Source of the DNA: a virus
Virus record (IMG/VR): IMGVR_UViG_3300023440_000002
Span: 32,001-96,000 of that record
Direction: 5' to 3' (one strand)
DNA length: 64,000 nucleotides
Of this stretch, positions 9,881 through 28,346 are shown piece after piece; position 1 is the first letter of the stretch, and each line of letters opens with the position of its first letter. The notes beneath the pieces were generated by a model. The model was not told where the DNA came from. It searched no databases and worked only from the letters and a program-made list of their open reading frames with translations. The position numbers were made by a program, and so were the translations under genes.

Positions 9881-10060
9881 CACCTAACTAAAAGAAAGGG
9901 TAGTGTTATGGGCGAGATAATTAAACTTTTTAAAGATAAAAAGATCTCACACACAAAAAACAGTGAATTTAAAGACAAGGTGGAGAAAATTAAAGCTTCA
10001 TTACAAAGAATTCAAAAATTAATGGAAGTTCTGCGGGAACACCAAAAAAAGGAAACCTAA

Positions 10061-10714
10061 ATGAAAAACACCAAAAAGAAGATTTTTTTCTATTCCGACC
10101 CTCATTATGGGCACGATAACGTAATCGGTTTCTGCAAAAACAGAAAATACAACACAATCGAAGAAATGAATGAGGATTACATTAAAAAATACAACCAAAT
10201 GGTACCTGAAGATGGGGTTGTGTTTTGGTTAGGCGATTGTTTTTTTAAGACAAGTAAGGACAACGCAAAAAACATAATGGATCAGCTTAACGGAACTAAG
10301 GTTTTGATTAGGGGGAATCACGATTGGGGTGTTAATGCTATGTATAAATTGGGTTTTTCTGCGGTGGTAGAATACGCTGAAATGTATATTTCTGGTTTGC
10401 CCGTAAAATTAAAGCATTTTCCTAGCAAGTATACTTCCAGCAAGATCAAAAACTGGCTTAAGTTTAATAAGTTGACTAGGTGGCTATCAAGGGTTTTGCC
10501 TGTCAAGCCTATCTATATTCCTAGGTATTTCAATAGGTTTCCAGAGCAGGACGGGAAATGGTTACTTCATGGTCACACCCACTCTACGGATAAGGTCGAT
10601 TACAAACACAAAATGATTCATGTGGGCGTCGATGCTTGGGGCGGACGTCCCGTACCTTTTAGTAGTATAGAGTCAATCATAAACAGAACAATAACACAAA
10701 AAAAGAAAGATTAA
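10061..10714 (+). CDS. Calcineurin-like metallophosphoesterase
   Basis: SDPHYGH, LGD, GNHD, HGHTH and VGVD motifs. Confidence 0.9.
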   Translation: MKNTKKKIFFYSDPHYGHDNVIGFCKNRKYNTIEEMNEDYIKKYNQMVPEDGVVFWLGDCFFKTSKDNAKNIMDQLNGTKVLIRGNHDWGVNAMYKLGFSAVVEYAEMYISGLPVKLKHFPSKYTSSKIKNWLKFNKLTRWLSRVLPVKPIYIPRYFNRFPEQDGKWLLHGHTHSTDKVDYKHKMIHVGVDAWGGRPVPFSSIESIINRTITQKKKD

Positions 10715-10840
10715 AGCACACTCAAGGTTTCAAAGGCTTAACGGTAGGTTTAACTACGACAGAAGCCCCTCTTCGAGTTGATGGGTGTATTATTTTCATA
10801 GTTGAGTCCTAAAAAAAAGTGGTTATTTATTATATTAGGC

Positions 10841-10867
10841 TAAAGTTTTTCATCAAACGACCGATAA
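10841..10867 (+). promoter_or_regulatory. Sigma-28-type promoter upstream of the DUF6745-like gene
   Basis: TAAAGTTT-N11-ACCGATAA. Confidence 0.85.
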
Positions 10868-10903
10868 GGTTAATAACAATAACGCTTCAAAGGAGATAGC
10901 GAG

Positions 10904-11797
10904 ATGGCAGAACTAAAAGAGAAGTTAACGGCATTAACAAAAGATCAAGAAGGGGCTATGGAGGGGTACAAAGACGAAGGTTGTCGTATCGGTCTTACTC
11001 TTGAAGATAACAAAACCGACCCAAAAAGAGTTCATGATATTATGAATCAGTTAAGGGTTTCTTGTGGTTTTGAAGAAGCCGAAGATTTTGTTTACCTTGA
11101 TAGCCCTAAGGCGGCTGTTTCAGGGTATGAAGAGTGTAATGTGCATAATTGTATGTACGGGTATCATGACATCAACTGGATTCAACACTACATGTTCTTT
11201 AAGAAAGAAACTGAGATTGAAGTTGACGATCGGATTGATCTTATGTTGGAGTTAGCGGAAACAGCTGGCTGGATGTGGATGACACCTAAACTGAATATTA
11301 TCACCAAAAGACCGGTTAAGTTAAACATGATCAAAAAAAGCAACAACATTAAGGTTATGCATAACTACAACGGAAAAGCTGTCGAGTTTGCTGACGGTTA
11401 CGGGGTTTATATGATTAATGGGGTTCAAATCCCAAAAGATCTAACTTACTTGGTCGATATGCCGGCCGAAGAGATAGACATCAAAACTGTCCTTGATATT
11501 AAAAACACCGAAATTAGAACAGAATTCCTAAAAAAGGTCGGTATCGAAAAGGCTTTTGATTCTCTATCTAAAACAAAACTAGACGAAAAGGAGATGGAAA
11601 TTGGTGGAACTTACGAGTTGTTTTCTGTTCAATTAGGTGAAGTTACTCGCATTTACCTAAGAGGTGAGTGCCCAAGCAATCAAGAACCTTTCTTTGAAGG
11701 TTGCCATCCGGACTGCAAAACAGTAGAGCAGGCTTTGAATTTCCGTAACGGGTTCAAACTTAACCTTAAGTTTAATGCACCACTAAACTTAACCTAA
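10904..11797 (+). CDS. DUF6745-like protein with no internal low-complexity tract
   Basis: 'LTKDQE..Y...IGL', 'LDSP', 'YGYHDINW', 'AGWMW', 'RP', 'H..NGKAVEFADGYGVYMINGV', 'IKNTEIR', 'CPS', 'VEQALNFR' match the family layout as I recall it. Confidence 0.7.
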   Translation: MAELKEKLTALTKDQEGAMEGYKDEGCRIGLTLEDNKTDPKRVHDIMNQLRVSCGFEEAEDFVYLDSPKAAVSGYEECNVHNCMYGYHDINWIQHYMFFKKETEIEVDDRIDLMLELAETAGWMWMTPKLNIITKRPVKLNMIKKSNNIKVMHNYNGKAVEFADGYGVYMINGVQIPKDLTYLVDMPAEEIDIKTVLDIKNTEIRTEFLKKVGIEKAFDSLSKTKLDEKEMEIGGTYELFSVQLGEVTRIYLRGECPSNQEPFFEGCHPDCKTVEQALNFRNGFKLNLKFNAPLNLT

Positions 11798-11807
11798 AAG
11801 CCTAATA

Positions 11808-11845
11808 AAAAAAAAGAGGATGCTGAGGCACACCCTCTTTTTTTT
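11808..11845. terminator. Intrinsic terminator-like hairpin
   Basis: A8-GAGG...CCTC-T8 after the 11797 stop. Confidence 0.6.
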
Positions 11846-11920
11846 AAAAAAACACTTGAAACTTAATATTAATTGTAGTAGACTAACCAACGAAAAGAGC
11901 AATTAAGCTCAAAAGGAGAA

Positions 11921-12307
11921 ATGTATATGCAGTACTACCAGCAAGGTGACGTTTTGCTAAAGAAGGTTTCAGTCCTTCCAAAGGAAGCAAAAAAGATTAA
12001 AGGGAAGGTTCTTCAAGAATCTGAGATTACAGGCCATCACCATCATTTTAAGGGTAACGCAGCGGTTGATCTATATCAAACCCTCGAAACTCCAACTAAT
12101 GATAAAACCATCACACCGAACTTTGGCAAATTCATCATTGTTAAAGAAATGTCAGATCTTTTCCACGGAAAAGGCTTTGACGCCACCCCTGCGGCACTAA
12201 ACCGAGGCGACCATGACGCAATCTCTATTCCACCTGGAATTTACGAGATCGATATCGTTAGAGAGTACGACTTTGACGCAAATGAGGTTTCTCGAGTGGT
12301 CGATTAA
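11921..12307 (+). CDS. Small conserved phage protein, usual neighbour of DUF6745 genes
   Basis: 'YQQGDVLL', 'E.TGHHH', 'H..I.IPPG.YEI...REYD'; SD GGAG present. Confidence 0.7.
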   Translation: MYMQYYQQGDVLLKKVSVLPKEAKKIKGKVLQESEITGHHHHFKGNAAVDLYQTLETPTNDKTITPNFGKFIIVKEMSDLFHGKGFDATPAALNRGDHDAISIPPGIYEIDIVREYDFDANEVSRVVD

Positions 12308-12317
12308 TCGACCACTT

Positions 12318-12354
12318 AAAGGGGTGTCATTTTTACATGACACCCCTTTTTTTT
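12318..12354 (+). terminator. Rho-independent terminator
   Basis: GGGGTGTCAT-loop-ATGACACCCC followed by T8. Confidence 0.9.
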
Positions 12355-12748
12355 ATAGCAAAAAAACCTAATATTATAAGCAAAGAGAGGTAACTGATTG
12401 ATATGTTTGAACTGTAAATTAGGTTATATGACCAGGCATCATGAACAACCATTTGGTGTGAATGAGTGGGTTAAGTGTTCGTTATGTTCATACTGTTGCA
12501 AAGGAAGTACGGATGATAGTTGTTATAAAAAAAAGCACCTTAGCCGAAATGAAGAAAAGAATCCAGAGATTAGAAACCCTCCACTTGAAAGCAGTAGAAA
12601 GAGCTGAAAAAGCAATTAAAGACCTCGAAAAAGCAACTAAAAAAAAGAAACCTGAGTGCTCACACACTTTTAACCCAAAATGGGAATCACACATTGGACC
12701 AGCCCCTTGCTTGAAGTGCGGCCATGTAGTGTACCAAACGGACATCTA

Positions 12749-13171
12749 ATGACTTTACTAGTAGACCTACAAAACTTAACGATTGGCACACAGACGAAGC
12801 AGATCGACGCTAATGATTCATACATGGAACATGCCGGACCGGTAGACTTCCGTTCGTTCATGGAATCAAAAGCAAGAAAAGGCGAAACTTCCGCCATGTT
12901 CCACTTAGAAAAGGAAGGTAATGCCAGAATAAGAAAGGCAGGTTACCAGTCTCTCAGTGGTCAAATAGGCACCTTAAGACCAGAACCTGGTCGAGGACTG
13001 ATAAGTCGTAATGGGGTAGGGTGGCTTTATATGAACCTGTCCACTTTAAATGAAACACAATTCAAAGCAGAGGTGCAAGATTTTATAGATTATCTAGAAT
13101 CAGAGGGTATCGTAATAACATCAGAGATAGTAGGTACTTCCATGGCGGACATTGGGGTTTCTTGGGCTTAG
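12749..13171 (+). CDS. Hypothetical protein
   Basis: Part of track ORF 12680..13171; likely start MTLLVDL overlaps the previous stop (TAATG). Confidence 0.55.
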   Translation: MTLLVDLQNLTIGTQTKQIDANDSYMEHAGPVDFRSFMESKARKGETSAMFHLEKEGNARIRKAGYQSLSGQIGTLRPEPGRGLISRNGVGWLYMNLSTLNETQFKAEVQDFIDYLESEGIVITSEIVGTSMADIGVSWA

Positions 13172-13186
13172 CTCGCAAAACTTAAC

Positions 13187-13213
13187 TAAAGTTTTTCAGC
13201 AAAGATCCGATAG
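13187..13213 (+). promoter_or_regulatory. Sigma-28-type promoter heading the + micro-ORF array
   Basis: TAAAGTTT-N11-TCCGATAG, about 50 nt before the first unit. Confidence 0.75.
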
Positions 13214-13259
13214 GGTGTATGTAAATGGCAAGTAGCTAACCCAATAAGGGAAAACCTAG

Positions 13260-15494
13260 ATGGAAACTAAATCTATTGCAAGTAAGGTTCACAGGAAGGT
13301 TCACGAGCAGATTCGCTGGCAGGTTTTCGGGCAGATTAACTGGGAGATTAGCAACCAGGTTGCCGATCAAATAATCAATCCAATAATCAATCCAATAAGG
13401 GATGATCTAAATGGAAACTAAAGATATTACAAAAGATGTTCGCCAGCAGGTTTACGAGCAGGTTCGCCAGGAGGTTTACGAGCAGGTTAACCGGCAGGTT
13501 CGCTGGAAGGTTGACGAGCAGATTCACTGGCAAATTCGAGATCAGGTTTACCGGCAGGTTCGCTGGCAGATTAACTGGCAGATTAGCGATCAGGTTAACT
13601 GACAAATAACTGAACCAATAAAGGATAACCTAGATGAAAGCTAAAGATATCACAAAAGAGGTTTACCGGCAGGTTCGCTGGCCGATTCTCGAGCAGGTTG
13701 CCGATCAAATAATCAATCCAATAATCAATCCAATAAGGGAAAACCTAAATGGAAGCTAAAGTTATTACAAATATAACCGATAAGATTTACAGTCAGGTTC
13801 TCAACCAGGTTAGCGACCGGATTCACGAGCAGCTTTACTGGGAGATTTACGGGCAGGTCCACGACCAGGTTCTCGGGCAAATATCTGACCCAATAGAGGA
13901 AAACCTAGATGGAAGCTAAAGTTATTACTAATAATATTTACGACCAGGTTCGCCAGAAGATTAAACAGCAGATTTTCGAGCAAGTTTATTGGCAAGTTAG
14001 CTTGCAGGTTCGCTGGTATATTAGCGATCAGATTAACCAGCAGGTTCGCGAGCAAATAGCCACCCCAATAAGGGAAAATCTAAGTGGAAACTGAAGATAT
14101 TACAAAAGAGGTTCGCCGGCATATTGTCAAGCAGATTAACTTGCAGGTTCGCGATCAAGTAACTAATCCAATATGGACTGATCTAAATGGAAACTAAAGA
14201 CGTTACAAATACAGCCGATCAGTCCCGCCGGCAGGTTCGCTGGAAGGTTGCCGATCAGGTTTTCGACCAGGTTAATGATCAGGTTAATGATCAGGTTTAC
14301 TGGCAGATTAACTGGGAGATTAGCAACCAGGTTGCCGATCAAATAATCAATCCAATAATCAATCCAATAAGGGATGATCTAAATGGAAACTAAAGATATT
14401 ACTAATGAGGTTCGCCAGCAGGTTTACTGGGAGATTCACAGTCAGGTTAACTGGCATGTTCGCAACCAGGTTCGCAACCAGGTTCGCCGGAAGGTTTTCT
14501 CGCAGATTTACGAGCAGGTTTTCGGGCAAATAACTAACCCAATAAAGGAAGATCTAGATGGAAACTGAAGATGTTACAGATAAGATTTACTATCGAATTA
14601 CCGGACAGGTCCGCAATCAGGTTGAGTGGCAGGTTCGCAGGCAGGTTCGTGACCAGATTATTGACCAGATTTACGACCAGATTGACGAACAAATAGTTAT
14701 CCCAATAAAGGAAAATCTAAATGACTGAAGCTAAAGTTATTAAAAATAAGATTTACCGGCAGATTCGCGGCCAGATTTGCCGGCAGATTAACCGGCAGAT
14801 TCGCTGGCAGACTCGCAGTCAGATTTGCCGGCAGATTAACTGGGATATTCGCGATCAGGTTCGCATTCAGATTTACGATCAGGCTAATGATCAAATATTT
14901 AATCCAATAAGGGATGATCTAAATGGAAACTAAAGATATTACAAATACAGCCGATCAGTCCCGCCGGCAGGTTCGCTGGAAGGTTGCCGATCAGATTTTC
15001 GACCAGGTTAATGATCAGGTTTACTGGCAGGTTTTCGGGCAGATTAACTGGGAGATTAGCAACCAGGTTGCCGATCAAATAATCAATCCAATAATCAATC
15101 CAATAAGGGATGACCTAAATGGAAACTAAAGATATTGCAAAAGAGATTCACGAGCAGGTTTACGAGCAGGTTTGCGACCAGGTTAGCGAGCAGGTTCGCC
15201 GGCAGGTTCGCCGGCAGGTTTACTGTCAGATTGGCGACCAGACTTACTGGCAAGTAACTAACCCAATAAGGGATGACCTAAATGGAAACTGAAGATATTG
15301 CAAAAGAGATTCACGAGCAGGTTGGCGAGCAGATTCGCCGGCAACTTTACGAGCAGGTTAACCGGCAGGTTCGCTGGAAGGTTGACGAGCAGATTTACTG
15401 GAAGGTTCGCTGGCAGATTCTCAACCAGGTTTCCGAGCAAATTACCAATCAGATTATCTGACAGATTCAAAACCCAATAAGGGATAACCCCTAA
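13260..15494 (+). repeat. Micro-ORF array 1: 13 coupled QVxx-repeat units
   Basis: Unit starts read by hand at 13260, 13411, 13634, 13749, 13909, 14084 (GTG), 14187, 14383, 14558, 14721, 14923, 15119 and 15282. The conserved junction CCAATAAGGGAnnAnCTARATGGAAACTAAAGATATT holds an SD and an 11-nt start/stop overlap. Confidence 0.92.
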
Positions 15495-15516
15495 ATAAAC
15501 TAAGAAAGGAACTATT

Positions 15517-15738
15517 ATGGCAAAGCAAGAATCAACACCGTGGGATGACCTAGAAGGAAGATTGGTCAACTACAAAAAACTACACCAGAAGAAAGCCACC
15601 GGACCACTCAAGGAAGAACTGGCTAAGGCAAAAACCCTAACTCAAGCTAGAAAGGTACTCTTCGGAGAAAAGAAGAAAAGAATCAATTGCTCTAATTGCT
15701 CACACAAAGTTTGTGTTTGCGGGAAAACTTCCCGTTGA
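15517..15738 (+). CDS. Small hypothetical protein with C-terminal Cys cluster
   Basis: SD AAGGA; CSNC..VCVC. Confidence 0.55.
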   Translation: MAKQESTPWDDLEGRLVNYKKLHQKKATGPLKEELAKAKTLTQARKVLFGEKKKRINCSNCSHKVCVCGKTSR

Positions 15739-15906
15739 TTTTCGCAGTGAAGGTCAAAATAGAATCATTTGACTCGAGGTTTACTGAAATAACCCAAGAC
15801 CTTTATTTCAGTAAACCTCCTAGTGAACAAGAAATAACCAAAGAGGCTTCTATTGACCCGCAAGTAAAGTGGTCATACATCGTAAAAAGAGTAATCATAA
15901 TCAACA

Positions 15907-16161
15907 ATGAAGGTATTTAACTTAATATTATGGCTTAAGGGATTGTTCTCTAAAAAGGGTATATCACACACTATTATGAAACCCCAAGGATTTAACGCCC
16001 TTAAGCCTAGCACCCCATCTAATTGCATTTATTGCGAAAACCAATGGGAAGAATTCGACCAGCATTCTTATGAAAGATGCAGTAAATGCTTCGATCTAAC
16101 CAACCTCCACCCAAGCAAAGTAACTTTAAAGAACAATAAAATCACCATTAACTTCGAGTAA
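15907..16161 (+). CDS. Small zinc-ribbon-like hypothetical protein
   Basis: Two CxxC motifs. Confidence 0.45.
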   Translation: MKVFNLILWLKGLFSKKGISHTIMKPQGFNALKPSTPSNCIYCENQWEEFDQHSYERCSKCFDLTNLHPSKVTLKNNKITINFE

Positions 16162-16165
16162 ACCC

Positions 16166-18391
16166 ATGACTAAATACGAACAATTCAGACAATACATCGC
16201 CCAATTCCTCCAAGGCCCTAACGTAGAAGCGATACTTAATAGTTTAGCAGACGATTCAACTAAACTAGAAAACCTATCGAGATCCGTAACAGACCAGCTA
16301 ACCATATCGACAGCCTCAAGTGTTTACTTAGATAAAAGACTAGCTGACAAAGGAATAACTCGCCCACCAGAACTAGGCATGTCTGACATATCATTCCGTA
16401 AGATGGGAATACAAATAACTGCGGCTAAGCAACTAACTGGATTAATCCATACGATACTGGGCACTTTCTATGGTGAAGAAGCAGTAAGGGCTAACCTGAA
16501 GAATACTAAGACAGGACCTTACAACCTAGAAGAAGGAATGGAACTAGAGTTCGAACTAGAGGATGGTATTACTAGGGTGGTATCATTCAAAAACACAGAC
16601 TTCATAAACATCAACCAAGCTACGGCATCAGAGGTAGCATCAGTAATAACACGATTCATAAGAACACAGAACTTAGGAGCTTTTGCTAGTACAGTAAAGG
16701 ACTTAAACACAGGCTTAGAGTTCATAAAGTTGTTCGGTGGAGCTGCGGGGCCATACTCAACAGTGACAGTCACAGGAGGCGAAGCTAATACAATCCTGCA
16801 ATTTCCTAATATTAGAGGAACCGAGCTGTTAGTTAATGATACAGCATGGGAGATTACCCGTACCGTAGGCAGCACATTACGGTTCAGATGGGCAGGCAAT
16901 TCCAAACCGGCATTAGACTTGATATTTCCAACCGACCGCGTAATGATTTACGGGCAAAGTTTTGAGTCTATTGGACTGGCCGGAACTTTTATTGTCTCAA
17001 ACGTACGACCTCCACTGATCGGCCCAGACCTAGACGCAGGGTGGTTCGAGATAGAAGTCCCTGCTTTCAGTGGCTTACGTTCTACTCAGCCTGGCACAAC
17101 ACCCCCAACTAACGTACCACCCGACACTATCTATTCTTATACCATAGTTCAAGCCAACTGGGAAGAGCTAATGTTCATGAAGCCAGTCAAAGCTTTACCT
17201 AACCGCCAGGTGCGTTACGCCTTAGGTTGGGAGCCTAGAGGTGATTTGCTGCGAATTTATATGCCGGCAACAACTGGTATTGTCTCTAGGGGGATTGAAG
17301 GTGCAGCACACTTACATTCGCTTTACGAGGACGGTAATCTGGATGGGGCTTTCGGCTCTGTTACGGATCTTGACTCCGCAGTGGAAGTTATCTCAGATCG
17401 CATTATACGATACCGCCAACTAGGTTACGATAATCACGCTACGGGAGGAGTATTGTCTTGGGGTGGTAATGACTACGAAATCGATTATGTCCGGCGTGAG
17501 CAATTCACCTCTACCGTATTTTTGAATGAGCCCCACGGATTGCCGGTAGTGCAAGATTCTTTCGGGCGCGACGTTTCTTTGGAAGTGGTATCTGTTGTGG
17601 TGGATATTATGCAGACAGACGATTTAGAATTCAAATCCCCCTATATGGTTGACCTAGGTAAGAACTACACCGTCAGGTCTGAGTTTGTTACTTCTCGCGC
17701 TAAGGTGTTTGCGGGTTCCACCCTGTCCACTTTGGATGTGGATGGTATTTTACCTAATGAGCCAGGGGTATTATTGTTCGACTTAAACACCGACAAAGAA
17801 GAAGGCCCTATTCGTTATGTTGGGGTTCAGGCTCAAAACGCCCCTAACGTGGTGAATATAGTGACTATTTCCCAAAACGGGCTGAATGTTACCATTACCA
17901 CAGATGCTCCTCACGGCGCTACTAGTGGCAGCAACATAGTAATATCAGGTACAACTTTCTTTGATGGGGTGTATCCCGTAGTGGGCGTACCTAACCCGAC
18001 TACCATCCAAGCGATTTCCACTGTCGTCCAGGTGGAGAATGAGGTTGGGGTAGGTAGCTTGTCTGTTGTGGTGGATAATGTTCGGTCTACGTTGCTGCTC
18101 GACCCTAGCAATGAATTCAAGTTTGATCATGAAATAGGAGCTGACTTAACTTTGATGTCTTCTAGGAATGCCTACCAGCCTGCCTTAGATGGCTCAGATT
18201 ACCCGTTCTACGTTACTGGGGTAGCTGAGGGTAGAGTTTTCGCTGCGGACGTCATAGAGGCTATTACGGCGTTAGGGATTAATATCGAAATATTGATCGT
18301 CTACCCAAGCGATAAAGGCCTAGGCAACGAAGGAGGTTCAGATGGTAATGAAACCCCTGTGTCAGATAAAGTTACGGTTTGGGGTGTTTAA
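16166..18391 (+). CDS. Probable baseplate/tail structural protein
   Basis: 741 aa. N-terminal 'ISTASSVYLDK..GITRP..MSD.SFR' resembles wedge-subunit motifs. Shares 'F...ATA.E' and 'VTITTDAPHG..G..I.ISG' motifs with 1596..8291 and 42074..47227. Confidence 0.65.
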   Translation: MTKYEQFRQYIAQFLQGPNVEAILNSLADDSTKLENLSRSVTDQLTISTASSVYLDKRLADKGITRPPELGMSDISFRKMGIQITAAKQLTGLIHTILGTFYGEEAVRANLKNTKTGPYNLEEGMELEFELEDGITRVVSFKNTDFININQATASEVASVITRFIRTQNLGAFASTVKDLNTGLEFIKLFGGAAGPYSTVTVTGGEANTILQFPNIRGTELLVNDTAWEITRTVGSTLRFRWAGNSKPALDLIFPTDRVMIYGQSFESIGLAGTFIVSNVRPPLIGPDLDAGWFEIEVPAFSGLRSTQPGTTPPTNVPPDTIYSYTIVQANWEELMFMKPVKALPNRQVRYALGWEPRGDLLRIYMPATTGIVSRGIEGAAHLHSLYEDGNLDGAFGSVTDLDSAVEVISDRIIRYRQLGYDNHATGGVLSWGGNDYEIDYVRREQFTSTVFLNEPHGLPVVQDSFGRDVSLEVVSVVVDIMQTDDLEFKSPYMVDLGKNYTVRSEFVTSRAKVFAGSTLSTLDVDGILPNEPGVLLFDLNTDKEEGPIRYVGVQAQNAPNVVNIVTISQNGLNVTITTDAPHGATSGSNIVISGTTFFDGVYPVVGVPNPTTIQAISTVVQVENEVGVGSLSVVVDNVRSTLLLDPSNEFKFDHEIGADLTLMSSRNAYQPALDGSDYPFYVTGVAEGRVFAADVIEAITALGINIEILIVYPSDKGLGNEGGSDGNETPVSDKVTVWGV

Positions 18392-20671
18392 GATCTCCCC
18401 TTATCAGGTTAGCTACTTGCCAGCTAACCTGCCAGTGAACCCGGTTGCTAGTCTGACGTTGAATATGCCAGTAAACCTGTCCGCTAACCTGCTCGTAAAC
18501 CTGCCGGTAAATCTGCTCGCGAATCTTATTAGCAATATCATTAGTTTTCATCGATATCATCCTTTATTTGGTTAGCTACTTGCCAGCTAATCTGCTCGAG
18601 AATCGGCCAGCGAACCTGCCTTCTAATCTTATTGCTAACCTGCCAGCGGACCTGCCAGTGAACCTGCCAGATAACCTGCCAGTAAATCTGCTCGCGAACC
18701 TGCTGGCGAATCTCTTTTGCAATATCATTAGTTTCCACTTAGGTCGCTCCATATTGGATCAGTTATTTGCAGGCGAACCTGCTCGCAAGCCTGCCGGTGA
18801 ACCTGCCATCCAACCTGCCAGCTAACCTGCTCGATAACCTGCTCGAGAATCTGCTCGTAAATCTGCTCGCGAATCTTACTTGTAATATCATTAGTTTCCA
18901 TTCAGATTATCCCTTATTGGGTTGGCTATTTGCTGGCCAACTTGGTCGATAATCCGGTCGCTAACCTGCCGGTAAACCTGCTCGATAACCTTCCAGTAAA
19001 CCTGGTCGTCAATCTGCTCGAGAATATGCCAGCAAACCTGATCGTAAACCTCCTGGCGAATCTCTTTTGCAATATCATTAGTTTCCACTTAGGTCGCTCC
19101 ATATTGGGTTGGCTATTTGCTCTTGAACCTGCCAGTAAACCTGGTCGTTAACCTTCCAGTAAACCTGTCCGCTAACCTGCTCGTAAACCTGTCGGTAAAT
19201 CTGCTCGCGAACCTGATCGATAACCTGCCCTCGAACCTGCTGGCGAATCTCTTTTGCAATATCTTCAGTCATATAGATCATCCTTGATTGGATTAGCTAC
19301 TTGCAGGCGAACCTGCTCGTAAACCCGCCAGTTAATCTGGTCGTCAATATGGCCGTAAATCTTCCAGCGAATTTCTTTTGTAATACCTTTAGCTTTCATT
19401 AAGGTTATCCTTTATTGGGTTAGCTATTTGATCGAAAACCTGGTCGATAACCTGCCCGCTAACCTGGTCGTCAATCTGCTCGAGAATATGCCAATAAGCC
19501 TGGTCGTTAACCTGCCCCAGAACCTGCTGGCGAACCTGCCAACGAACCTCATTAGTAATAACTTTAGCTTTCATCTAGGTCGCTCCATATTGGATCAGTT
19601 ATTTGCAGGCGAACCTGGTCTCGAATCTCCCAGTGAACCTGCTCGATAACCTGCAAGTTAATTTGCTTGACAATATGCAGGTAAGCCTTCCAGCTAATCT
19701 CTTTTGCAATATCTTCAGTCATTTAGGTTTTCCTTTATTGGGTTAGTTATTTGCCAGCTAACCTGCTCGAGAATCTGCCAATTAACCTGCTCGATAACCT
19801 GCCAGTAAACCTGTTCGATAACCTGCCGGCGGATCTGGTTGCGAACCTGCCCGCTAACCTGGTCGTCAATCTGACAGTAAACTTGCCAGCTAATATCTTC
19901 AGTCATTTAGGTTATCCTTTATTGGGTCAGATATTTGATCATGAACCTGCCATCCAATCTGCCATCCAATCTGCCGGAAAACCTGCCAGTAAACCTGTCG
20001 GCGAACCTTCCAGAGAGCTTGGTCGTTAACCTGATCATTAACCTGCCGGTGAACATCTTTTGCAATATCTTCAGTTTCCATTTAGGTTATCCTTTATTGG
20101 GTCAGATATTTGATCATGAACCTGCCATCCAATCTGCCATCCAATCTGCCGGAGAGCCTGGTCGTTAATCTGCCAGTAAATCTGTTGGTGAATCTGCTGG
20201 TGAATCTCATTAGTAATATCTTTAGCTTTCATCTAGGTCTTCCCATATTGGATTAGCTATTTGCTCGAAAACCTGCTCGTAAACCTGCCGGCGAACCTGG
20301 TCGTAAACCTGCCCGCGAATCTGCCAGTAAATCTCCCAGTAAACCTGCCAGTTAACCTCTTTTGTGATATCTTCAGATTCCATTTAGATCTACCTTTATT
20401 GGGGTGGCTATTTGATTGCGAACCTGCTCGTAAACCTGCCGGCGAACCTGGTCGCAAACCTGCCCGCGAATCTGCCAGTAAATCTCCCAGTAAACCTGAT
20501 CATTAATCTGCCAGTGAAGCTTCCAGTGAACCTGGCCGTTAATCTGCTCTCGAACCTGCTGGCGAATCTCATTAGTAATATCTTCAGCTTTCATCTAGGT
20601 CATCCATTATTGGGGTGGCTATTTGATTGCGAACCTGGTCGCTAACCTGCCGACCTTACTTTACATAAACC

Positions 20672-20698
20672 TTATCGGTTATGTCTGTAATAACTTTA
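20672..20698 (-). promoter_or_regulatory. Sigma-28-type promoter inside an array unit
   Basis: Reverse complement TAAAGTTA-N11-ACCGATAA. Confidence 0.75.
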
Positions 20699-20958
20699 GC
20701 TTTCACTTAGGTCTCCACCTATTAGGTTACGAACCTGCCGGCGAACCTGCCAGTGAACCGGCAGGTTAATTTGCTCGACAATATGCAAGTAAGTCTTCCA
20801 GCTAGTCTGCTGGTTAACCTGCTGATGGATCTTCCAGTGAATCTGCCGGCGAATCTCTTTTGTAGTATCTTTAGTTTCCATTGAGATTTTCCTTTATTGG
20901 GTCAGTTATTTGATTGCGAGCTTGATCGTCAATTTGCCGACCTTACTTTACATAAACC

Positions 20959-20985
20959 TTATCGGCTATATCTGTAATAACTTTA
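20959..20985 (-). promoter_or_regulatory. Sigma-28-type promoter inside an array unit
   Basis: Reverse complement TAAAGTTA-N11-GCCGATAA. Confidence 0.8.
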
Positions 20986-23525
20986 GTTTCCATGCAGATC
21001 TTCCCTTATTGGTTCAGTTATTTGCCCATGAACCTGGTCGTGAACTTGCCAGTTAATTTGATCGAGAATCTGGCCGTGAACCTGGTCGCCAATCTGCTGA
21101 TAAACACCCCGGCTAATCTGATCATTAATCTGCTGGTGAATCTTACCTATAATATCTTCAGTTTTCATTAAGATCTTCCCATATTGGGTCAGTTATTTGC
21201 AGGCGAACCTCCCAGTAAGTCTGGTCGCCAATCTGCCAGTAAACCTGCCGGCGAACCTGCTCGAGAACATGGCCGCGAATCTGATGGTAAATCTCCCAAT
21301 CAACCTGCCAGTGAATCTTACTTGTAATATCTTTAGTTTTCATTTAGGTCTACCTTTATTGGAGAGGTTGTTTGCCAGCGAACCTGCATATCAACCTGAT
21401 CTAGAATCTGCCGCTGAATCTGCCAGCGAACCTGATAGTGAACCTGATCTCGAATTTGCCAGTAAATCTGCCAGTTAACCTCTTTTGTAATATCTTTAGT
21501 TTTCATCGAGGTCATCCTTTATTGGGTCGGATATTTGATTGTAAACCTGATTGTGAACCTGATCTAGAATCTGCCAGTAAGCCTGCCAGTAAGTCTGCCC
21601 GCTAGCCTGGCCTTTAATACGCTCGAGAATCTGGCCGTGAACCTCCCAGTGAACCTGATCGTAAATATGCCCGCTAGCCTGCTGGCCAACCTGATTGGTA
21701 ATTTGATCGTCAACCTGCTCGTCAACCTGCCAGTAAATCTGTTGACTAATCTGATTATGTACCTTGTCGGCTATATCTTTAGTTTTCATTTAGGTCATCC
21801 TTTATTGGGTTAGCTACTTGCTGGTGAACCTGCTCGTGAACCCGCCAGTAAACCTCCTCGTAAGTCTCCTCGTAAACCTCCCAATAAACACAATCGTAAA
21901 GATGCTTGCTAACCTTATCGAGAATCTGATTGCGAACCTGCCAGTGAATCTCATCGTGAATCTTACCTGTAATACCATCAGCTTCCATCTAAGTCTTCCT
22001 TTATTGGGATGGTTATTTGCCAGCGAATCTGATCGCGAACATGCCAGTTAACCTTCCAGCGAACCTGCTCGAGAATCTCCCAGTCAACCTGCTCGCTAAC
22101 CTTCCAGCGAATCTGACTGTAAATCTTACTTGCTATATCTTCAATTTTCATTTAGGTCATCCTTTATTGGGTCGGATATTTGATTGTAAGCCTGCTCGTG
22201 AACATGCTGGCGAACCTGCCGGTTAACCTGCTCGTAAACCTCCCAGCTAACCTGGTCGCAAATCTGCTCGAAAACCTGGTCGCGAATCTCCCAGTGAATA
22301 CCCCAATGAACCTGGTCGTAAACCTGCGAGCGAACATCTTTTGTAATATCTTTAGTTTTCATCGAGGTCATCCTTTATTGGAGAGGTTGTTTGCCGGCGA
22401 ACCTTACCGTGAATCAGCCAATTAACCTGTTCGCGAATCTGACTGTAAACCTGCCAGTGAACCTGCTCGTAAATCTGCCAGTGAGCGTGACTGACAATTC
22501 GATTGTGAATTTTGTCGGCTATATCTTTAGTTTTCATCGAGGTCATCCTTTATTGGGTTAGCTACTTGCTCGTGAACCTGATTGTGAACCTGATCTAGAA
22601 TCTGCTCGCTAATCTGCTTGCGAACCTCCCAGTAAGCCTCCCAGCGAATACCCCAATGAACCTGGTCGTAAACCTGCTTATAAACCTTATTTGCGGCAAT
22701 TTTAGCTTCCATTTAGTTCATCCCTTATTGGGTTGGCTATTTGATTTCGAATTTGCCTATGAATCTGCTTGCGAACCTCCCAGTAAACCTCCCAGCGAAC
22801 CTGCAAGTTAATCTGCTTGACAATATGCAGGTAAACCTCCCAGCTAATCTCTTTTGTAATATCATTAGTTTCCATCTAGATCTTCCTTTATTGGGTTAAG
22901 TATTTGATCACGAATCTGCCAGTTAACCCTCGAGTAAGCCCTCCAATAAACCAAATAATCAACCTGCTCGCGAACTTGCCAGTAAATCTTCCGGTAAACC
23001 TGCTGGCGAATCTCATTAGTAATATCTTCAATTTCCATTTAGGTCTTCCCATATTGGATCAACTCCTTGCTCACGAACTTGAGCGTAAATCTGCCAGTAA
23101 ATCTGCCAGCGAACCTTCCGGTTAACTTTCTCGTGAATATGATTGATAGTCTGCCGGCGAATCTGCTGGCGAACCTGGTCGTGAATCTCTTTTGTAATAT
23201 CTTCAGTTTCCATTTAGGTCATTCCTTATTGGGTCGATTATCTGTACGTGAACCTGCCAGCGAACATGCAAGCGAACATGCTCGAGAATCTTCCAGTAGG
23301 GGTTCCGGCCAACCTGATCAACGACCTGCTCTCGAACCTGGTCGTAAACCTGCTTATAAACCTTATTTGCGGCAACTTTAGCTTTCATTTAGATCTTCCT
23401 TTATTGGGATAACTATTTGCCCGCGAATTTGATCGTTAATCTGCTCGTTAATCTGTTCGCGAACCTGCCCTCGAACCTGCCAATAAGTCTGCCAGTCAAC
23501 CTTCCAACTAATCTCGCTACACACC

Positions 23526-23552
23526 TTATCGGTTATACCTGTAATAACTTTA
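23526..23552 (-). promoter_or_regulatory. Sigma-28-type promoter inside an array unit
   Basis: Reverse complement TAAAGTTA-N11-ACCGATAA. Confidence 0.75.
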
Positions 23553-23572
23553 GCTTTCATTTAGATCTTCCT

Positions 23573-24115
23573 TTATTCGCTCAAATACACAGCACCATCA
23601 ACAAAACCCGGAGCTATCTTGTCCAGGTACTCTCTATTCATATAGGTTTGGTTCTTGATTAGTTCTTTATAATTCGGAGGGTTAAATATCTTATTGATCT
23701 CTTTATGAATAAAAACATTATCTTTAATTGTCTTTTTAGAATCTTCCATTGTTACAATACATCGAGACGGACAATAATAATACAAGTTATGCATCATCAT
23801 TGTTGCTTTTGGCGTTAAGTGCCTGGTATCACACAAGGTTGAAATATAAAAGGCCATACTTAGGGCTTTCTTAATCAGGCAATGAACTTTAAACCCTCTC
23901 TTTTTAATGTCCTGAATTGAAGCCCCTAGCTGAAAAAAAGGCGTAACCGGCCCTCCAGGACTGTCAATTGTTAAATAAACATCCCGATGGGTCAACCTAA
24001 TATAAACTGCCAACGCAGATGCCGACATAGAATCGGTAAGCTTTAGTTTAGATACTTCACTAGCTGAAACCTGACTAGGCAACAGGATCATTAAAATTAA
24101 AAGTAAGTATTTCAT
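23573..24115 (-). CDS. ClpP/crotonase-fold serine protease with predicted signal peptide
   Basis: 'LTIDSPGG', 'ALSMAF' (catalytic Ser) and 'MMMH' (catalytic His); hydrophobic N-terminus MKYLLLILMILLPSQVSA. Confidence 0.75.
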   Translation of the reverse strand: MKYLLLILMILLPSQVSASEVSKLKLTDSMSASALAVYIRLTHRDVYLTIDSPGGPVTPFFQLGASIQDIKKRGFKVHCLIKKALSMAFYISTLCDTRHLTPKATMMMHNLYYYCPSRCIVTMEDSKKTIKDNVFIHKEINKIFNPPNYKELIKNQTYMNREYLDKIAPGFVDGAVYLSE

Positions 24116-24129
24116 ATTGTTCCTTTCTG

Positions 24130-26120
24130 TTAGGGTTTAATCTCTATTCCATTAACCTTATCGGCTATATCTGCAATATCTTTAGTTTCCATTTAGATCT
24201 ACCTTTATTGGTTCAGTTATTTGCTGGTCAACCTGGTCGCAAACCTGCCAGTGAATATGCCAGTCAACCTGCCAGCGAATCTCCCAGTGAGCCTGGTCAT
24301 TAATCTGACGGTCAACCTCCTGACGAATCTTTTTTGTAATATCTTTAGTTTCCATTTAGGTCTTCCTTTATTGGGAGGGTTATTCGGTCGTCAATCTTTA
24401 AGTGGATCTCCCAGAGAACCTCCCGGCGAATCTTCCGACTAATCTGCTCATCAACCTGCTCATCAACCTGCTTATAAGTTTGGTTGTCAATCTGCAAGCG
24501 AACCTGCTCGATAACCTCATTAGTGATATCTTTAGTTTTCATCTAGGTTTTCCTTTATTGGGTTAGCTACTTGCTCGTGAACCTGCTCGTCAACATTCCA
24601 GTAAATCTCCCGGCTCACCCCCCTGTCAACCTGCCGGTTAATCTGCCAATAAACCTGATCGCTAATCTCCCGACGAATTTTATTACCAGTATCTTCAGCT
24701 TTCATCTAGATCATCCTTTATTGGGTTAGCTACTTGCTCGTGAACCCGCCAGTAAACCTGCCTGTGAACCTTCCAGCGAACCTGCCCTCTAGCCTGCCAA
24801 TTAATCTGTTTGTGAACCTTCCAGCGAACCTGCTCGTCAAACTCTTTTGTAATATCTTTAGCTTCCATCTAGGTCTTCCTTTATTGGGAGGGTTATTTGC
24901 TCGTCAATCTTTAAGTGGATCTCCCAGAGAACCTCCCGGCGAATCTTCCGACTAACCTGCCAACAAACCTGCTCATCAACCTGCTTATAAGTTTGGTTGT
25001 CAATCTGCAAGCGAACTTTATTACCAATATCTTTAGCTTCCATCTAGGTCTTCCTTTATTGGGTCGAATACTTGATTGTAAACCTGGTCGTGAACCTGTC
25101 GGCGAACCTGTCGGTGAACCTGCCATCCAACCTGCCGGAGAACCTGACAGTTAGCCTGCCAGCTAACCTGCCAGCTAACCTGCCAGCTAACCTTTTTTAT
25201 AATACCTTTAGTTTCCATCTAGGTCTTCCTTTATTGGATTAGTTATTTGCTCGAAAACCTGGTCGCAAACCTGCCCGCGAATCTGCCAGTAAATCTCCCA
25301 GTAAAACTGATCATCAATCTGCCAGTGAACCTGGCCGCGAATCTGCCAGTAAACCTGGTCGTCAACCTCCCGACGAATCTTTTTTATAATACCTTTAGTT
25401 TCCATCTAGGTCTTCCCTTATTGGATTGGTTATTTGACCGAAAACCTGCAAGAGAGCATGCAAGCGAACATGCAAGCGAACCTTCCAATAAATCTGCCAG
25501 TCATCCTGCCAGTTAACCTGCTCGAGAATCTGGTCGCGAATCTCTTTTATAGTATCACTAGCTTCCATCTAGGTTTTCCTTTATTGGGTCGGTTATTTGC
25601 TCGAAAACCTGGTCGTAAACCTGTCGGCGAATATGCCGGCGAACCTGCCATTCAATCTGCCCTCGAACCTGCCATCCAACCTGCCGGAGAACCTGACAGT
25701 TAGCCTGCCAGCTAACCTGCCCGCGAACCTGTTCGATAACCTCTTTTGCAATATCTTTAGCTTCCATTTAGGTCTACCATTATTGGGTTAGTTATTTGTG
25801 TGCGGATTTTACTGTAAGTACTCCAGCTGACCTGCATGTTAACTTCTTTTCGAGCGTTCCAATCAAAAACACTGCAAGCGGGTAGATTAGACAGATTAGC
25901 AATCTCATCAGTAATACCCAACCGTAAATCAATTATGTCTGTCATCGAGATCTCCCTTTATTGAAGCCATCACCTGCAAGCGGACCTCCAAGTGAATTGC
26001 AAAAGTGGTTTGTTGGTAAATGTAACTCCGAACATTAAACCTAAAGAGATCTGGGGAGTTACGTGTGCATTGACTTAGAAGGTCGATGGCTATCTTATGT
26101 TGAATATCAAGGACTTTCAT
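24130..26120 (-). repeat. Micro-ORF array 2, proximal part: about 12 units (2 divergent, 1 truncated)
   Basis: Starts at 26120, 25945, 25767, 25568, 25405, 25218, 25043, 24868, 24705, 24542, 24355 and 24192. Confidence 0.9.
24158..24184 (-). promoter_or_regulatory. Sigma-28-type promoter in a truncated unit, upstream of the ClpP-like gene
   Basis: Reverse complement TAAAGATA-N11-GCCGATAA. Confidence 0.75.
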
Positions 26121-26329
26121 TTCATACCCTCTAGAAACTCAACTATATCTTCAATATCCAAGTATGAGTTGTAATGGTTAAGCACTTCCACGTCATTATG
26201 GTCCTTATCTATCAACATAAATTTCGTTGATAGGCCGTGAGTGTCGCCTTCCAAATTAACCCCTAAGTACATGTCATATTTAGCATATAATGCCCTTAGT
26301 TCTTCGCAAAACCCTTTAACCTTATTCAC
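26117..26329 (-). CDS. Hypothetical protein
   Basis: 70 aa, ATGA-coupled to the first array unit. Confidence 0.55.
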   Translation of the reverse strand: MNKVKGFCEELRALYAKYDMYLGVNLEGDTHGLSTKFMLIDKDHNDVEVLNHYNSYLDIEDIVEFLEGMK

Positions 26330-26606
26330 TACTAGCTCCTTTAACCATCTCTATGATTAAATCATATATTCCTTTACTTTTAAAGTATTTAATTTCGAAA
26401 GACATTAACCCGCCAATAGACCGTATTTGATGCACAGCTTCCGACACCTCACAGCAATCCTCATAAAGGGTTGATTCATCTTCTTCGTACATCTGCCTCT
26501 GCAAGAATTCTTTCGTTATGCAGCTGCTGGTGGACATATCAACGTCCATATGGGCGTAAGACTGGATAATGATATCCTTTATTAGTTCGTTTCGTTTTGC
26601 TGTCAA
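26322..26606 (-). CDS. Hypothetical protein, first gene of the array-2 operon
   Basis: SD AAGGAG, TTG start, downstream of the promoter at 26658-26684. Confidence 0.55.
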   Translation of the reverse strand: MTAKRNELIKDIIIQSYAHMDVDMSTSSCITKEFLQRQMYEEDESTLYEDCCEVSEAVHQIRSIGGLMSFEIKYFKSKGIYDLIIEMVKGASSE

Positions 26607-26657
26607 AACTGTGCTCCTTCATTGCGGGTGATTACGCGGGTTCGCCGCCTAAAGGGT

Positions 26658-26684
26658 TTATCGGTTGACTTGCGAAAAACTTTA
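26658..26684 (-). promoter_or_regulatory. Sigma-28-type promoter heading the - array operon
   Basis: Reverse complement TAAAGTTT-N11-ACCGATAA, back-to-back with CCTAATATT at 26686 on +. Confidence 0.85.
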
Positions 26685-26885
26685 GCCTAATATTAACATA
26701 GAAGAAAGTGAGTTGTTTTGCTAATTTAAAGGCCATATATATGTGTAAAGACGAAGAGTTAGAAGAACTCAAAAAAGATATAGCTGAAAACAGCCGCCAG
26801 TTAGACTCTGATGTCGAAAGAGTTATCTACGAAAACCTGTCAGAGGTTTTCGCCTAATCGATTCCCGCCGTAAGAGAGGTTAAAG

Positions 26886-28346
26886 TTGAAGAAAATACTA
26901 TCAAAATTGCAAATAAAACAAAAGCTTACCTCTTTAGCTGGCAAAGCCAAAGAAAAGATAGATCGCACCTCCCTCGGCAACCCTAGTGATAACTTATACA
27001 GTGAAATCAAGAGCTTACGTAATATGCAAAGAAAAGGTGCCCGTATGGGTAAGTCGGAAGCCGCTAAGCTACTTAAAGGTTCTTTGCAGCGACGTAACCC
27101 TTTCAATCCCGAAAACGTAGACCCGGACGAAAGGTACGACGTTAAAAGTTGGACTGACAGTTACGGCGACAGAGCTGACATTCCTCAAATGCAACCGGAA
27201 GCGAAACAGCGCGGCATGCATAAACTACACGGACTCACCCAGTCAAGGCAAAACGAATCAGGTGAAATGGAGTTCTTACTCCACAGGGGTATGAACCATG
27301 ATGAGCACGAAGCTATACAAACTTACGGCACCGGGGATAGTACCAGCTCTTGGACTCCTCATGTCGGAATAGCCCAAGACTTCGCCTCGCATTATCAAGA
27401 TCAATTCGACCCCCCATCTAAGGTTGTATCGGCCTGGATACCTGAATCTCAAATCCATCATATCCCAAACACCATCGGAGGAAAGAGGTACCCTGAAGGT
27501 AATATTTCTAACTCTAACCATAGCCACGAACAAGAAGTTATAGTTAAACCTCACAGATTCAATACGGTAGATTACCAGCAACCCGACAGCGACGACACGA
27601 TAAACTCAAGAATAAGTGCGAGAGGTAAAAATCTCACGAACTTTAGGTCTTACGCTAAACGCCGACTGGGAAAGAAGGAGGAACTAGAAAAGGGATCTTT
27701 GCAGCGCCGCAACCCTTTCAACCCAATAAAAGATGTTTCACCTAAAGACCGGCGAGACGTAGAAAAATGGCATAGAGGTGTAGGGGAGAGGTCGGACAGG
27801 GATTCTGCTCCAAGTAAAATTCCGGAAAACGCCACAAAGCGCGGCATGCATAAACTACATGGACTTACCCAGTCAAGGCAAAACGAATCGGGCGAACGAG
27901 AGTTCCTGCTCCATAGAGGTGCTGGCGCTCAAGAATCCGGATGGCTAAACAGCTCTAAGGTTCTTAGCGGACATTCGAGCTGGACTCCTAAGTATAAAGT
28001 GGCAGAACGATTTGCTAGTATGAACCCCCACGCAAAGGGCAATGTTTTTAGTGCGTGGATTCCTGAATCTCAAATAGCTGGAACACCTAATGCGATTGGG
28101 GAAGCTGGGTATTCTATAAAGCAAGATCACCACCTCCCCAAAGAAACCCCAGCCAAAATGATGAGGCCTGCATATTTTAGCAGCGAACAAGAAGTCATAG
28201 TTAAACCCCACAAGTTCAATATAGTAGACCATCAACACCCCGACGACCAAGAAACCTCCCTTAACTCCAGAGTAAACCTAAGAGGGTCAGGTTCGGACAG
28301 CTTCAAGGATTATGCCGAAAGGATCATCAGGAGGAGACAAAAATGA
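26886..28346 (+). CDS. Tandem two-domain ADP-ribosyltransferase-like protein
   Basis: Two copies of about 205 aa, each with LLHRG ... SSWTP ... EQEVIV (R-S-E clade pattern). Confidence 0.65.
   Translation: MKKILSKLQIKQKLTSLAGKAKEKIDRTSLGNPSDNLYSEIKSLRNMQRKGARMGKSEAAKLLKGSLQRRNPFNPENVDPDERYDVKSWTDSYGDRADIPQMQPEAKQRGMHKLHGLTQSRQNESGEMEFLLHRGMNHDEHEAIQTYGTGDSTSSWTPHVGIAQDFASHYQDQFDPPSKVVSAWIPESQIHHIPNTIGGKRYPEGNISNSNHSHEQEVIVKPHRFNTVDYQQPDSDDTINSRISARGKNLTNFRSYAKRRLGKKEELEKGSLQRRNPFNPIKDVSPKDRRDVEKWHRGVGERSDRDSAPSKIPENATKRGMHKLHGLTQSRQNESGEREFLLHRGAGAQESGWLNSSKVLSGHSSWTPKYKVAERFASMNPHAKGNVFSAWIPESQIAGTPNAIGEAGYSIKQDHHLPKETPAKMMRPAYFSSEQEVIVKPHKFNIVDHQHPDDQETSLNSRVNLRGSGSDSFKDYAERIIRRRQK

Follow-up and report, generated by a model that had tools for sequence, protein, structure and literature searches.

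In the targets of diversity-generating retroelements (DGRs), such as Mtd of Bordetella phage BPP-1, hypervariation is focused on the surface residues of a constant scaffold. Another form of variation is found in the phage protein Tweety gp54, in whose repeat the third-codon positions are invariant while the first and second positions vary (PMC2884959), and changes in this repeat retune counter-defense against Phrann gp29/gp30 (PMC9262239). The Tweety work was the only literature found on tetrapeptide-repeat phage proteins. An internal tetrapeptide tract is also typical of the DUF6745 family, yet it lies outside the Pfam model, and a literature search found no paper mentioning DUF6745 and none on a split architecture. 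Here, a window of 64,000 nucleotides (nt) from an uncultured large phage was analyzed (bases 32001-96000 of the 108-kb IMG/VR virus record IMGVR_UViG_3300023440_000002; CheckV completeness estimate, 68%), in which a DUF6745 gene without the tract is accompanied by arrays of 52 free-standing mini-genes made of tetrapeptide repeats. The locus is interpreted, with fair confidence, as a split DUF6745 protein with a germline library of exchangeable variable helices, which would be co-regulated with the scaffold and supplied in trans, probably for use in phage-host conflict.

The DUF6745 Scaffold and Its Missing Tract

The scaffold gene and its neighbor form an operon with the following features:

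10841..10867, plus strand: sigma-28-like promoter motif, TAAAGTT-N12-ACCGATAA, 37 nt before the DUF6745 ATG
10904..11797, plus strand: tract-less DUF6745 scaffold gene, 297 amino acids (aa), with a match to Pfam PF20530
11921..12307, plus strand: His-rich partner gene, 128 aa, phrog_27831 (E 4e-10), with YYQQGDV and ITGHHHH
12318..12349, plus strand: terminator-like hairpin of 13 pairs with a T run, closing the DUF6745-partner operon

An earlier reading of the window, made from its letters only (the sequence-only reading), had taken the 10904-11797 product for a DUF6745 protein, and the Pfam search confirmed this assignment (E 1.5e-11, 44.4 bits against a cut-off of 27; 44.6 bits in the genome search). 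It had also given the distance between the LDSP and YGYHD motifs as only about 16 residues; the sequence and the alignment place LDSP at residues 65-68 and YGYHD at residues 85-89, with 16 non-repetitive residues between them. The period-4 identity score of the window scaffold is 5, compared with 12-23 in tract-bearing DUF6745 members. The family motifs comprise an N-terminal LTxEQ, SP, YGxHD..W, GW.W, LH..G.A..Y.DG...LNG, N.E.R, PS....E.V, and T..A...R, and the window scaffold keeps all of the near-invariant columns (L11, Q15, G30, P68, G86, W92, W123, P137, H153, D164, G173, N201, R205, Y237, P257, S258, E265, T273, A277, and R281).

A closest-homologue profile search returned 8,896 DUF6745 cluster representatives (50% identity clusters). 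The closest relatives, with 36-52% identity, are all about 290-330 aa long and have no tract. Longer members match the query in two stretches around an insert that falls exactly at query position 57-75, and this insert is the tetrapeptide tract. In the relatives that carry one, the tract always lies between the SP motif and YGxHD, as the sequence-only reading had stated for many family members and as the homologue alignment bore out. Examples include QVRDQVGDQVWAQV... in P0063 and P0080, and SVWDSVRASV... in P0090, along with NVRD, NIxx, and SAVx tracts; further types (SQLx, NLxx, DSLx, and QATx) were found among 80 viral loci and 15 loci from bacterial or archaeal metagenome-assembled genomes (MAGs). 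The feature constant across types is a polar residue, then an aliphatic residue, then two variable positions. The AlphaFold2 (AF2) model of the tract-bearing P0080 protein, with a predicted local distance difference test score (pLDDT) of 88, consists of a confident globular domain and a tract (pLDDT 46-83) folded into a long hairpin of two antiparallel helices (H64-119 and H126-180).

Two other arrangements were observed. Ma-LMM01 gp174, from a cultured Microcystis phage (L230:6473-7609), and L229:9259-10458 carry a non-repetitive insert of 60-90 residues at this site, which is a third state beside the in-cis tract and no tract. On a MAG contig labeled Candidatus Hermodarchaeota (L012:8534-9607), small open reading frames (ORFs) composed of ENLx tetrads (ENLRENLGENLRENLW...) are found immediately upstream of a weak-tract DUF6745 gene, and may represent a tract that was detached or frameshifted, in this case outside collections of phage sequences.

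The AF2 model of the window scaffold has a pLDDT of 95.6 and a predicted template modeling score of 0.83. Foldseek searches of the PDB with this model and with that of P0080 returned nothing at E <= 0.001. In the VIA wide search, the best match to the window scaffold was a beta-meander (Z 5.2; root-mean-square deviation 3.6 over 72 aligned residues), and the tract-bearing model matched generic long helices only (best Z 5.6); these model-based matches are too weak for naming the scaffold fold, and the novelty of the fold is not thereby shown. When the scaffold and partner profiles were searched against PDB sequences, nothing scored below E 0.03, and PADLOC and NCBIfam gave nothing meaningful for the scaffold, partner, or units. 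Megablast of positions 10000-18500 against 50,697 phage records gave no match, and the close-homologue scaffold alignment, used as a locus search query, retrieved no loci in viral contigs or genome contigs.

The His-Rich Partner

The QGDV/TGHHH partner gene that had been noted after the scaffold gene is present at 11921-12307. In an alignment of 36 members, nine residues are invariant (Q8, G9, D10, G38, H39, H41, H98, G106, and D128), and all nine are found in the window partner. The residue pattern, QQGDV...GExTGHxH...HEEH...EYDHF...D, suggests a metal site; no Pfam relative of the partner was found. The partner adjoins DUF6745 in about half of the viral loci, whether or not the tract is present in cis, and one such pair is Ma-LMM01 gp175/gp174. 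Mycobacterium phage prophiGD102-1 gp38 (481 aa; matched over P0080 residues 78-314) is probably a tract-bearing DUF6745 protein, judging from this match, and the small adjoining gene gp37 may be its partner. In both Ma-LMM01 and the prophage prophiGD102-1, these genes are located among early replication/recombination genes. Five DUF6745 proteins (P0012, P0136, P0140, L211, and L215) have a C-terminal insertion, ...ENG.DW(Y/F)QQGDV..., that copies the N-terminal QQGDV strand of the partner, and this copying suggests that the strand is a partner-scaffold contact.

Arrays of Free-Standing Repeat Mini-Genes

The first repeat unit starts at 13260, which is 953 nt past the partner gene. In total, 52 units were found, 13 on the plus strand and 39 on the minus strand, with lengths of 37-97 aa (median about 61), together with two 101-nt remnants. 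They are arranged as follows:

13260..15461, plus strand: array of 13 coupled mini-genes, 37-70 aa, with an internal promoter motif at 13757-13783
24182..26120, minus strand: first block of the minus array, 11 units, with a promoter motif at 26658-26684 upstream of the operon
23573..24115, minus strand: ClpP-like protease gene inside the minus array (CLP_protease, E 1.1e-5; phrog_1827)
20983..23560, minus strand: second block of the minus array, 14 units, the longest being 21496-21789 (97 aa)
18372..20881, minus strand: last blocks of the minus array, one unit at 20696-20881 and 13 units at 18372-20594

The free-standing arrays of Q-(V/I)-x-x ORFs described in the sequence-only reading are thus real, although the count is 52 rather than about 55. 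The same reading had called the modules massively amplified, which is fair for 52 units, the largest set encountered; they are, however, old and diverged, with pairwise DNA identities of 60-87%, and therefore do not reflect a recent burst. Each unit is laid out as an M-E/K-T/A-K-D-I-T cap, 7-22 tetrads of Q-(V/I)-x-x, and an N-P-I-K-D/E-D-L-N/D-G-N cap. The two most upstream minus-strand units (25929-26120 and 25757-25945) are degenerate, with the C-terminal cap kept, and the last minus-strand unit overlaps the 3′ end of a convergent 741-aa gene, 16166-18391. A DNA pattern of five CARRT tetrads matched 53 times in the 108-kb record, all within the arrays and on the coding strand, and its reversed control matched 0 times. 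The ClpP/NfeD-like serine protease gene that lies within the minus array has a signal-peptide-like N-terminus (MKYLLLILMILLPSQVSASE) and its own promoter motif ahead, at 24158-24184.

Neighboring units share an overlap of 11 nt, or in some cases 8, 17, or 20 nt; the ATG of each unit lies within the preceding ...LNGN-stop, and an AAGGA Shine-Dalgarno sequence is found about 9 nt upstream of the unit ATG, inside the K-E/D-D codons. By their sequence, the unit junctions have the classic layout of termination-reinitiation coupling. Because successive units overlap and are one frame apart, the array might also be read as one or a few long polyproteins via a programmed frameshift at each junction. 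This would require about 50 consecutive frameshifts, whereas the canonical Shine-Dalgarno, start, and stop at each junction are typical of termination-reinitiation, and the frameshifted polyprotein was rejected on this layout as hardly credible. The antisense "NLxx" frame was likewise rejected as the coding frame: it has TTG starts and no Shine-Dalgarno sequence, and the gene orientation fits the QV frame.

A Promoter Motif Common to the Scaffold and the Arrays

The motif TAAA-N14-16-CCGATAA occurs in 12 copies in the window, compared with 0.17 expected, and is always oriented with the genes. Almost all copies are of the form TAAAGTT-N12-(A/G)CCGATAA, which resembles the sigma-28/FliA consensus. 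Sites of the motif include:

8842-8868, 10841-10867, 13757-13783, 20672-20698, 20959-20985, 23526-23552, 24158-24184, 26658-26684, 35336-35362, 38111-38137, and 39544-39570

Some copies are located inside the N-terminal codons of units (13757 and 23526, the latter, 23526-23552, being written into the first unit of the second minus block), and others inside the two unit remnants between the last minus blocks (20672-20698 and 20959-20985). Since the motif stands ahead of the scaffold gene and in or ahead of the arrays, one promoter type is common to both. The earlier suggestion that the scaffold gene and the arrays follow sigma-28-type promoters was therefore upheld, with the qualification that the plus array is preceded by an imperfect copy only (13186-13213). 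Elsewhere in the window, the product of 62199-63218 shows a weak match to sigma-70 region 3 (E 9e-4, below the Pfam cut-off), and might be a reader of the motif.

The presence of sigma-28-like motifs in some unit 5′ ends, and the fact that the two arrays are mutual inverted repeats with 70-82% identity, would also fit an element that acts at the DNA or RNA level, with the peptides as by-products. The units could then be promoter cassettes, substrates for recombination or inversion between the two arrays, or a regulatory or structured RNA. The promoter motif is, however, present in only about 6 of the 52 units, and Rfam has no family in 10000-27000. The 3- and 12-base periodicity with conservation at the amino-acid level points to coding, and the in-cis homologues of the tract are clearly protein sequence. 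A nucleic-acid element of this kind is regarded as highly improbable.

Variation within the 12-Nucleotide Repeat

The mutation pattern was scored over 468 clean tetrads, among which 201 distinct tetrad peptides were found. Its main features, and the codon usage of the units, are as follows:

12-nt unit positions 2 and 5: invariant (A of CAG, T of GTT/ATT)
12-nt unit positions 3, 6, 9, and 12 (third codon positions): G 82%, T 88%, C 78%, and G 60%
12-nt unit positions 7, 8, and 10: near random (0.09, 0.25, and 0.10 bits)
CAG among Gln codons: 83% in the units, 24% in other phage genes
GTT among Val codons: 92% in the units, 42% in other phage genes
CGC and CGG among Arg codons: 79% in the units, 14% in other phage genes
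GAG among Glu codons: 87% in the units, 28% in other phage genes

The silent third positions are frozen, whereas the bases determining residues 3 and 4 vary almost at random, and the codon usage of the units is opposite to that of the phage's other genes. The residue 3 codon has the form NNY, so that no stop should be possible there, whatever its first two bases. The same silent sites are frozen in in-cis tracts, where variation is limited to positions 7, 8, and 11 and the alphabets are small, for example W/R/G by D/A, giving roughly 6 distinct tetrads per tract. The simplest account suggested by this pattern would be slippage, unequal exchange, and cassette shuffling on a conserved 12-nt frame, combined with selection for new residues. 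DGR-driven variation was considered and rejected as unlikely, because the record (about 68% complete) contains no RVT_1 match to a reverse transcriptase in its 108 kb, and because the variation is not adenine-specific.

Frozen silent sites and a codon usage foreign to the phage are also what repeat dynamics at the DNA level would produce, and other frames and the antisense strand are open too, so the arrays could be selfish or decaying repeat DNA, either a runaway 12-nt satellite or a fissioned tract, whose ORFs are incidental and under no selection as protein. Several features speak against this explanation, which is considered improbable. All units retain a start (ATG or GTG) with a Shine-Dalgarno sequence at a constant distance, a stop, and the two caps; units differ in length by multiples of 12 nt; Q/E/K and V/I are kept amid randomized neighboring bases; the units have diverged to the extent given above, yet remain intact over 10 kb; and the same architecture, with other caps, arose in several phage lineages.

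A Model for Docking of the Units

The structure-prediction check proposed with the sequence-only reading was run by co-folding the scaffold, the partner, and the unit 14383-14568, each with its own alignment, in three runs and with three controls. The co-fold score was 0.87, compared with 0.00 for the best of the three controls; of 80 solved complexes, 58 reach the pass mark, as do 2 of 110 mismatched pairs, although these rates apply only approximately to a three-chain run with custom alignments. At least 88% of contacts recur across the runs, and the pLDDT of the unit is 81 or higher. The lowest-error contacts of the unit are made by V34, V38, I42, and V46 (tetrad position 2) and by K37, Q41, and Q45 (position 1), with scaffold residues 19, 22, 23, 26, 27, and 30 and residues 91, 94, 95, and 98 on the other side. 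The scaffold helices so contacted carry the most conserved motifs of the family (Y22 and G30; G86, D89, and W92). Scaffold residues 68-85, the site at which the tract is inserted in relatives, also touch the unit. The untouched unit residues (12, 16, 20, 23, 24, 28, 31, 32, 36, 48, and 52) are almost all at position 4, with some at position 3, and the partner makes no contact with the unit. In this model, the constant Q-V/I face would dock and the variable face would be exposed; the co-fold supports binding without showing it.

Arrays in Other Phages

Viral contigs were scanned for seven consecutive CARRT-N7 units, and the scan retrieved many tract-bearing DUF6745 genes and ten contigs with tandem free-standing QVxx mini-ORFs. 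A PF20530 match was found in six of the ten array contigs, most of which are fragments (4-73% complete), and all six of these DUF6745 genes are without a tetrad tract. The scaffold gene lies directly beside or within the arrays in five contigs (G001, G002, G003, G004, and G007), and in G008 it is separated from the closest units by about 8.5 kb. Three of the six contigs (G002, G004, and G008) also have the QGDV/TGHxH partner gene. The units of G007 (QVWD, QVRA, and QVGD) are indistinguishable from tracts carried in cis, for example in P0063 and P0080.

Eighty viral DUF6745 loci were also sampled without regard to arrays. Among about 46 tract-bearing viral and MAG loci, no clear array was found, with L145 being ambiguous (an ORF of S-x repeats), whereas an array or a free unit accompanies 4 of the roughly 13 tract-less loci: L211 (at least 7 units), L221 (4 units), L205 (one long DR(V/I)x unit), and L195 (a different, S-rich type). 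With the window included, all nine DUF6745 genes that have QV-type arrays are tract-less, compared with about 15-20% of viral DUF6745 genes. The co-occurrence that the sequence-only reading had proposed as a test was thus found, the arrays accompanying tract-less, and not tract-bearing, DUF6745 genes.

Other forms of the repeat were also encountered. At L195:7575-9304, tandem mini-ORFs of another type (MTTHMMTQSNRW, then S-x repeats, e.g., SWSRSGSWS) lie by the tract-less DUF6745 gene, and at L145:7115-7372 one S-x repeat ORF lies near a tract-bearing gene; the reading frame is uncertain in both. Proteins P0015, P0017, and P0020 (135-139 aa) have two predicted membrane helices followed by a QVxx tract and, at the end, a ...QENLTT cap like that of the units, and from these features they are taken as a putative membrane-anchored form of the mini-protein. 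In the ESM Atlas, several clusters that consist only of viral proteins (50-270 members, unannotated, 52-66 aa long) resemble the units.

These surveys bear on a further explanation, in which the mini-proteins descend from the tract and now act alone, as self-associating helices, sponges, or host-factor decoys, so that the adjacency to DUF6745 would reflect common origin or co-regulation. An array without DUF6745 in G005 (63% complete), small QVxx proteins that occur alone or fused to a membrane anchor (P0015, P0019, and P0021), and the oddity of 52 units per scaffold for a 1:1 complex are in keeping with it. It does not readily account for the lack of a tract in all nine array-linked DUF6745 genes when most viral members have one, for arrays never clearly occurring with tract-bearing genes, or for a docking model that sets the constant face of the unit on the most conserved motifs of the family. 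Independent action of the mini-proteins is therefore thought rather unlikely, and a split DUF6745 protein with units supplied in trans is preferred.

Origins of the Detached State

Trees were built on the globular domain, with the tract columns dropped, using IQ-TREE and FastTree; the root is not known. The detached state needs five changes on the tree, and well-supported branches force at least three (IQ-TREE) or five (FastTree). When all 11 detached rows were forced into one clade, the cost in log-likelihood was 127, and this topology was rejected (p-AU 0.0027). L211 is sister to a tract-bearing gene (support 99*). The long branch of the window scaffold is placed among tract-bearing rows in both trees, and in the FastTree tree it belongs to a 99*-supported set of 12 rows, 9 of which are tract-bearing. 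The nesting of detached forms within a tract-bearing majority, which includes cellular genomes, suggests repeated detachment from an ancestor with the tract in cis.

A Proposed Mechanism

The preferred interpretation, that of a split DUF6745 protein with a library of variable helices, would work as follows. In most phage and bacterial DUF6745 proteins, the tetrad tract lies between SP and YGxHD, and its predicted structure is a long helical hairpin extending outward from the globular domain. The scaffold encoded by 10904-11797 would have lost this tract, and the repeat would now reside in the 52 translationally coupled mini-genes, with scaffold and mini-genes driven by the same sigma-28-like promoter type. 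The helix of each mini-protein is predicted to pack its constant Q and V/I residues in the groove between helices 19-30 and 91-98, beside the empty site at 68-85, with the fourth residue of the tetrad, and often the third too, pointing outward. Since the variable residues would face outward on the docked helix, one scaffold with its partner could be armed with any of 52 surfaces. The repertoire would then be held in one genome, replacing the between-genome variation in repeat number of in-cis tracts. The diversity within the 12-nt cassette, with its silent positions frozen, would come from cassette shuffling or slippage and selection, and not from a retroelement.

The use of such a repertoire would be the recognition of variable targets in phage-host conflict, for example to neutralize defense proteins. 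A role of this kind is likely by analogy, on the basis of the exposed, interface-like W, R, Y, D, E, H, and N residues, of the early or accessory setting in cultured phages, and of the resemblance to gp54. A bolder version can be offered tentatively, as a possibility only: a combinatorial germline repertoire in which the scaffold and a metal-binding partner are combined with 52 alternative helices, diversified by 12-nt shuffling within a frame that is largely protected from stops (NNY at residue 3 and mostly N-R-G at residue 4), so that many variants of a host target could be met at once, and which evolved at least three times from an in-cis tract.

Several observations weigh against the split-protein interpretation. 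About nine tract-less DUF6745 loci have no array within 10 kb, and a tract-less scaffold can therefore exist without nearby units, while the array-bearing G005 is without DUF6745. An amphipathic helix may dock readily in a model, and one unit was co-folded. The counter-defense role, argued by analogy, leans on a non-homologous protein, Tweety gp54. Foldseek and VIA gave the scaffold no recognizable fold or catalytic motif. The window scaffold sits on a long branch (1.6), and its exact placement in the trees is therefore unsure.

Neighboring Genes

Upstream of the locus, 1596-8291 (plus strand) encodes a 2231-aa protein with a Baseplate_J-like region and a CBM5/12 carbohydrate-binding module. 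From these domains it is likely a baseplate or tail-fiber protein, which would place the DUF6745 locus shortly downstream of structural genes. Downstream of the arrays, 26886-28346 (plus strand) encodes a 486-aa protein with no family match, which consists of two similar halves of about 230 aa, both of which repeat ...KGSLQRRNPFNP...RGMHKLHGLTQSRQNESGE.EFLLHRG...SSWTP...SAWIPESQI...SEQEVIVKPH.FN.VD.Q.PD.....

Comparison with Known Systems

The small phage proteins of phrog_33514 (56 aa) match the QVxx tracts of P0080 and P0063 and also a free G007 unit; isolated phage genomes thus already encode free QV-repeat mini-proteins, although without a name. The window units gave no match to phrog_33514 at E <= 0.01, and profiles of repeats are a poor guide to membership. 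The phrog_33514 record gives neither a function nor a link to DUF6745.

The closest system is the tract-bearing DUF6745 protein itself (PF20530; phrog_31813; P0063 and P0080), which has a homologous scaffold, a QVxx repeat of the same type, and an adjacent His-rich partner. Its tract falls exactly at the 16-residue gap of the window protein, and its 12-nt cassette has the same frozen silent sites. The window differs in that the tract is absent from the scaffold and is replaced by 52 separate genes, each having caps, a start, and a stop of its own, and in the alphabet at positions 3 and 4, with 201 distinct tetrads compared with roughly 6 per in-cis tract. The split form makes of DUF6745 a family with a testable mechanism, in which a constant scaffold with a docking groove would receive a variable helix either in cis or in trans.

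Tweety gp54 shares with the window system tetrapeptide repeats of two fixed and two variable residues, encoded by a 12-bp unit with invariant third-codon positions. Its gene lies among small genes downstream of an antirepressor, and that of prophiGD102-1 gp38 among early recombination/replication genes. In gp54, however, the repeat stands in cis between the protein's own N- and C-terminal domains, and it varies between phage genomes, with no library within a genome. A homologous relationship was rejected: gp54 has no Pfam hit, hhalign against the DUF6745 profile gave a probability of 0.3%, and the two proteins belong to different families (phrog_3416 and phrog_31813). By analogy, the window system may nonetheless work like gp54, with repeat changes retuning specificity, and the pattern of frozen silent sites common to both suggests a general, still unexplained form of repeat diversification in phages.

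With DGR targets, the window system has in common a phage-encoded, focused hypervariation of surface residues on a constant scaffold. It differs from them in that no template/variable repeat pair was seen in the record, in variation that is not adenine-specific, and in diversity that is stored as paralogous genes. If the units are exchangeable specificity modules, the locus would represent a new way of storing diversity in viruses, as a multigene repertoire, unlike mutagenic retroelements or invertible cassettes. It might then also provide a natural platform for protein engineering, built from short helices in which each turn has two fixed and two free positions.

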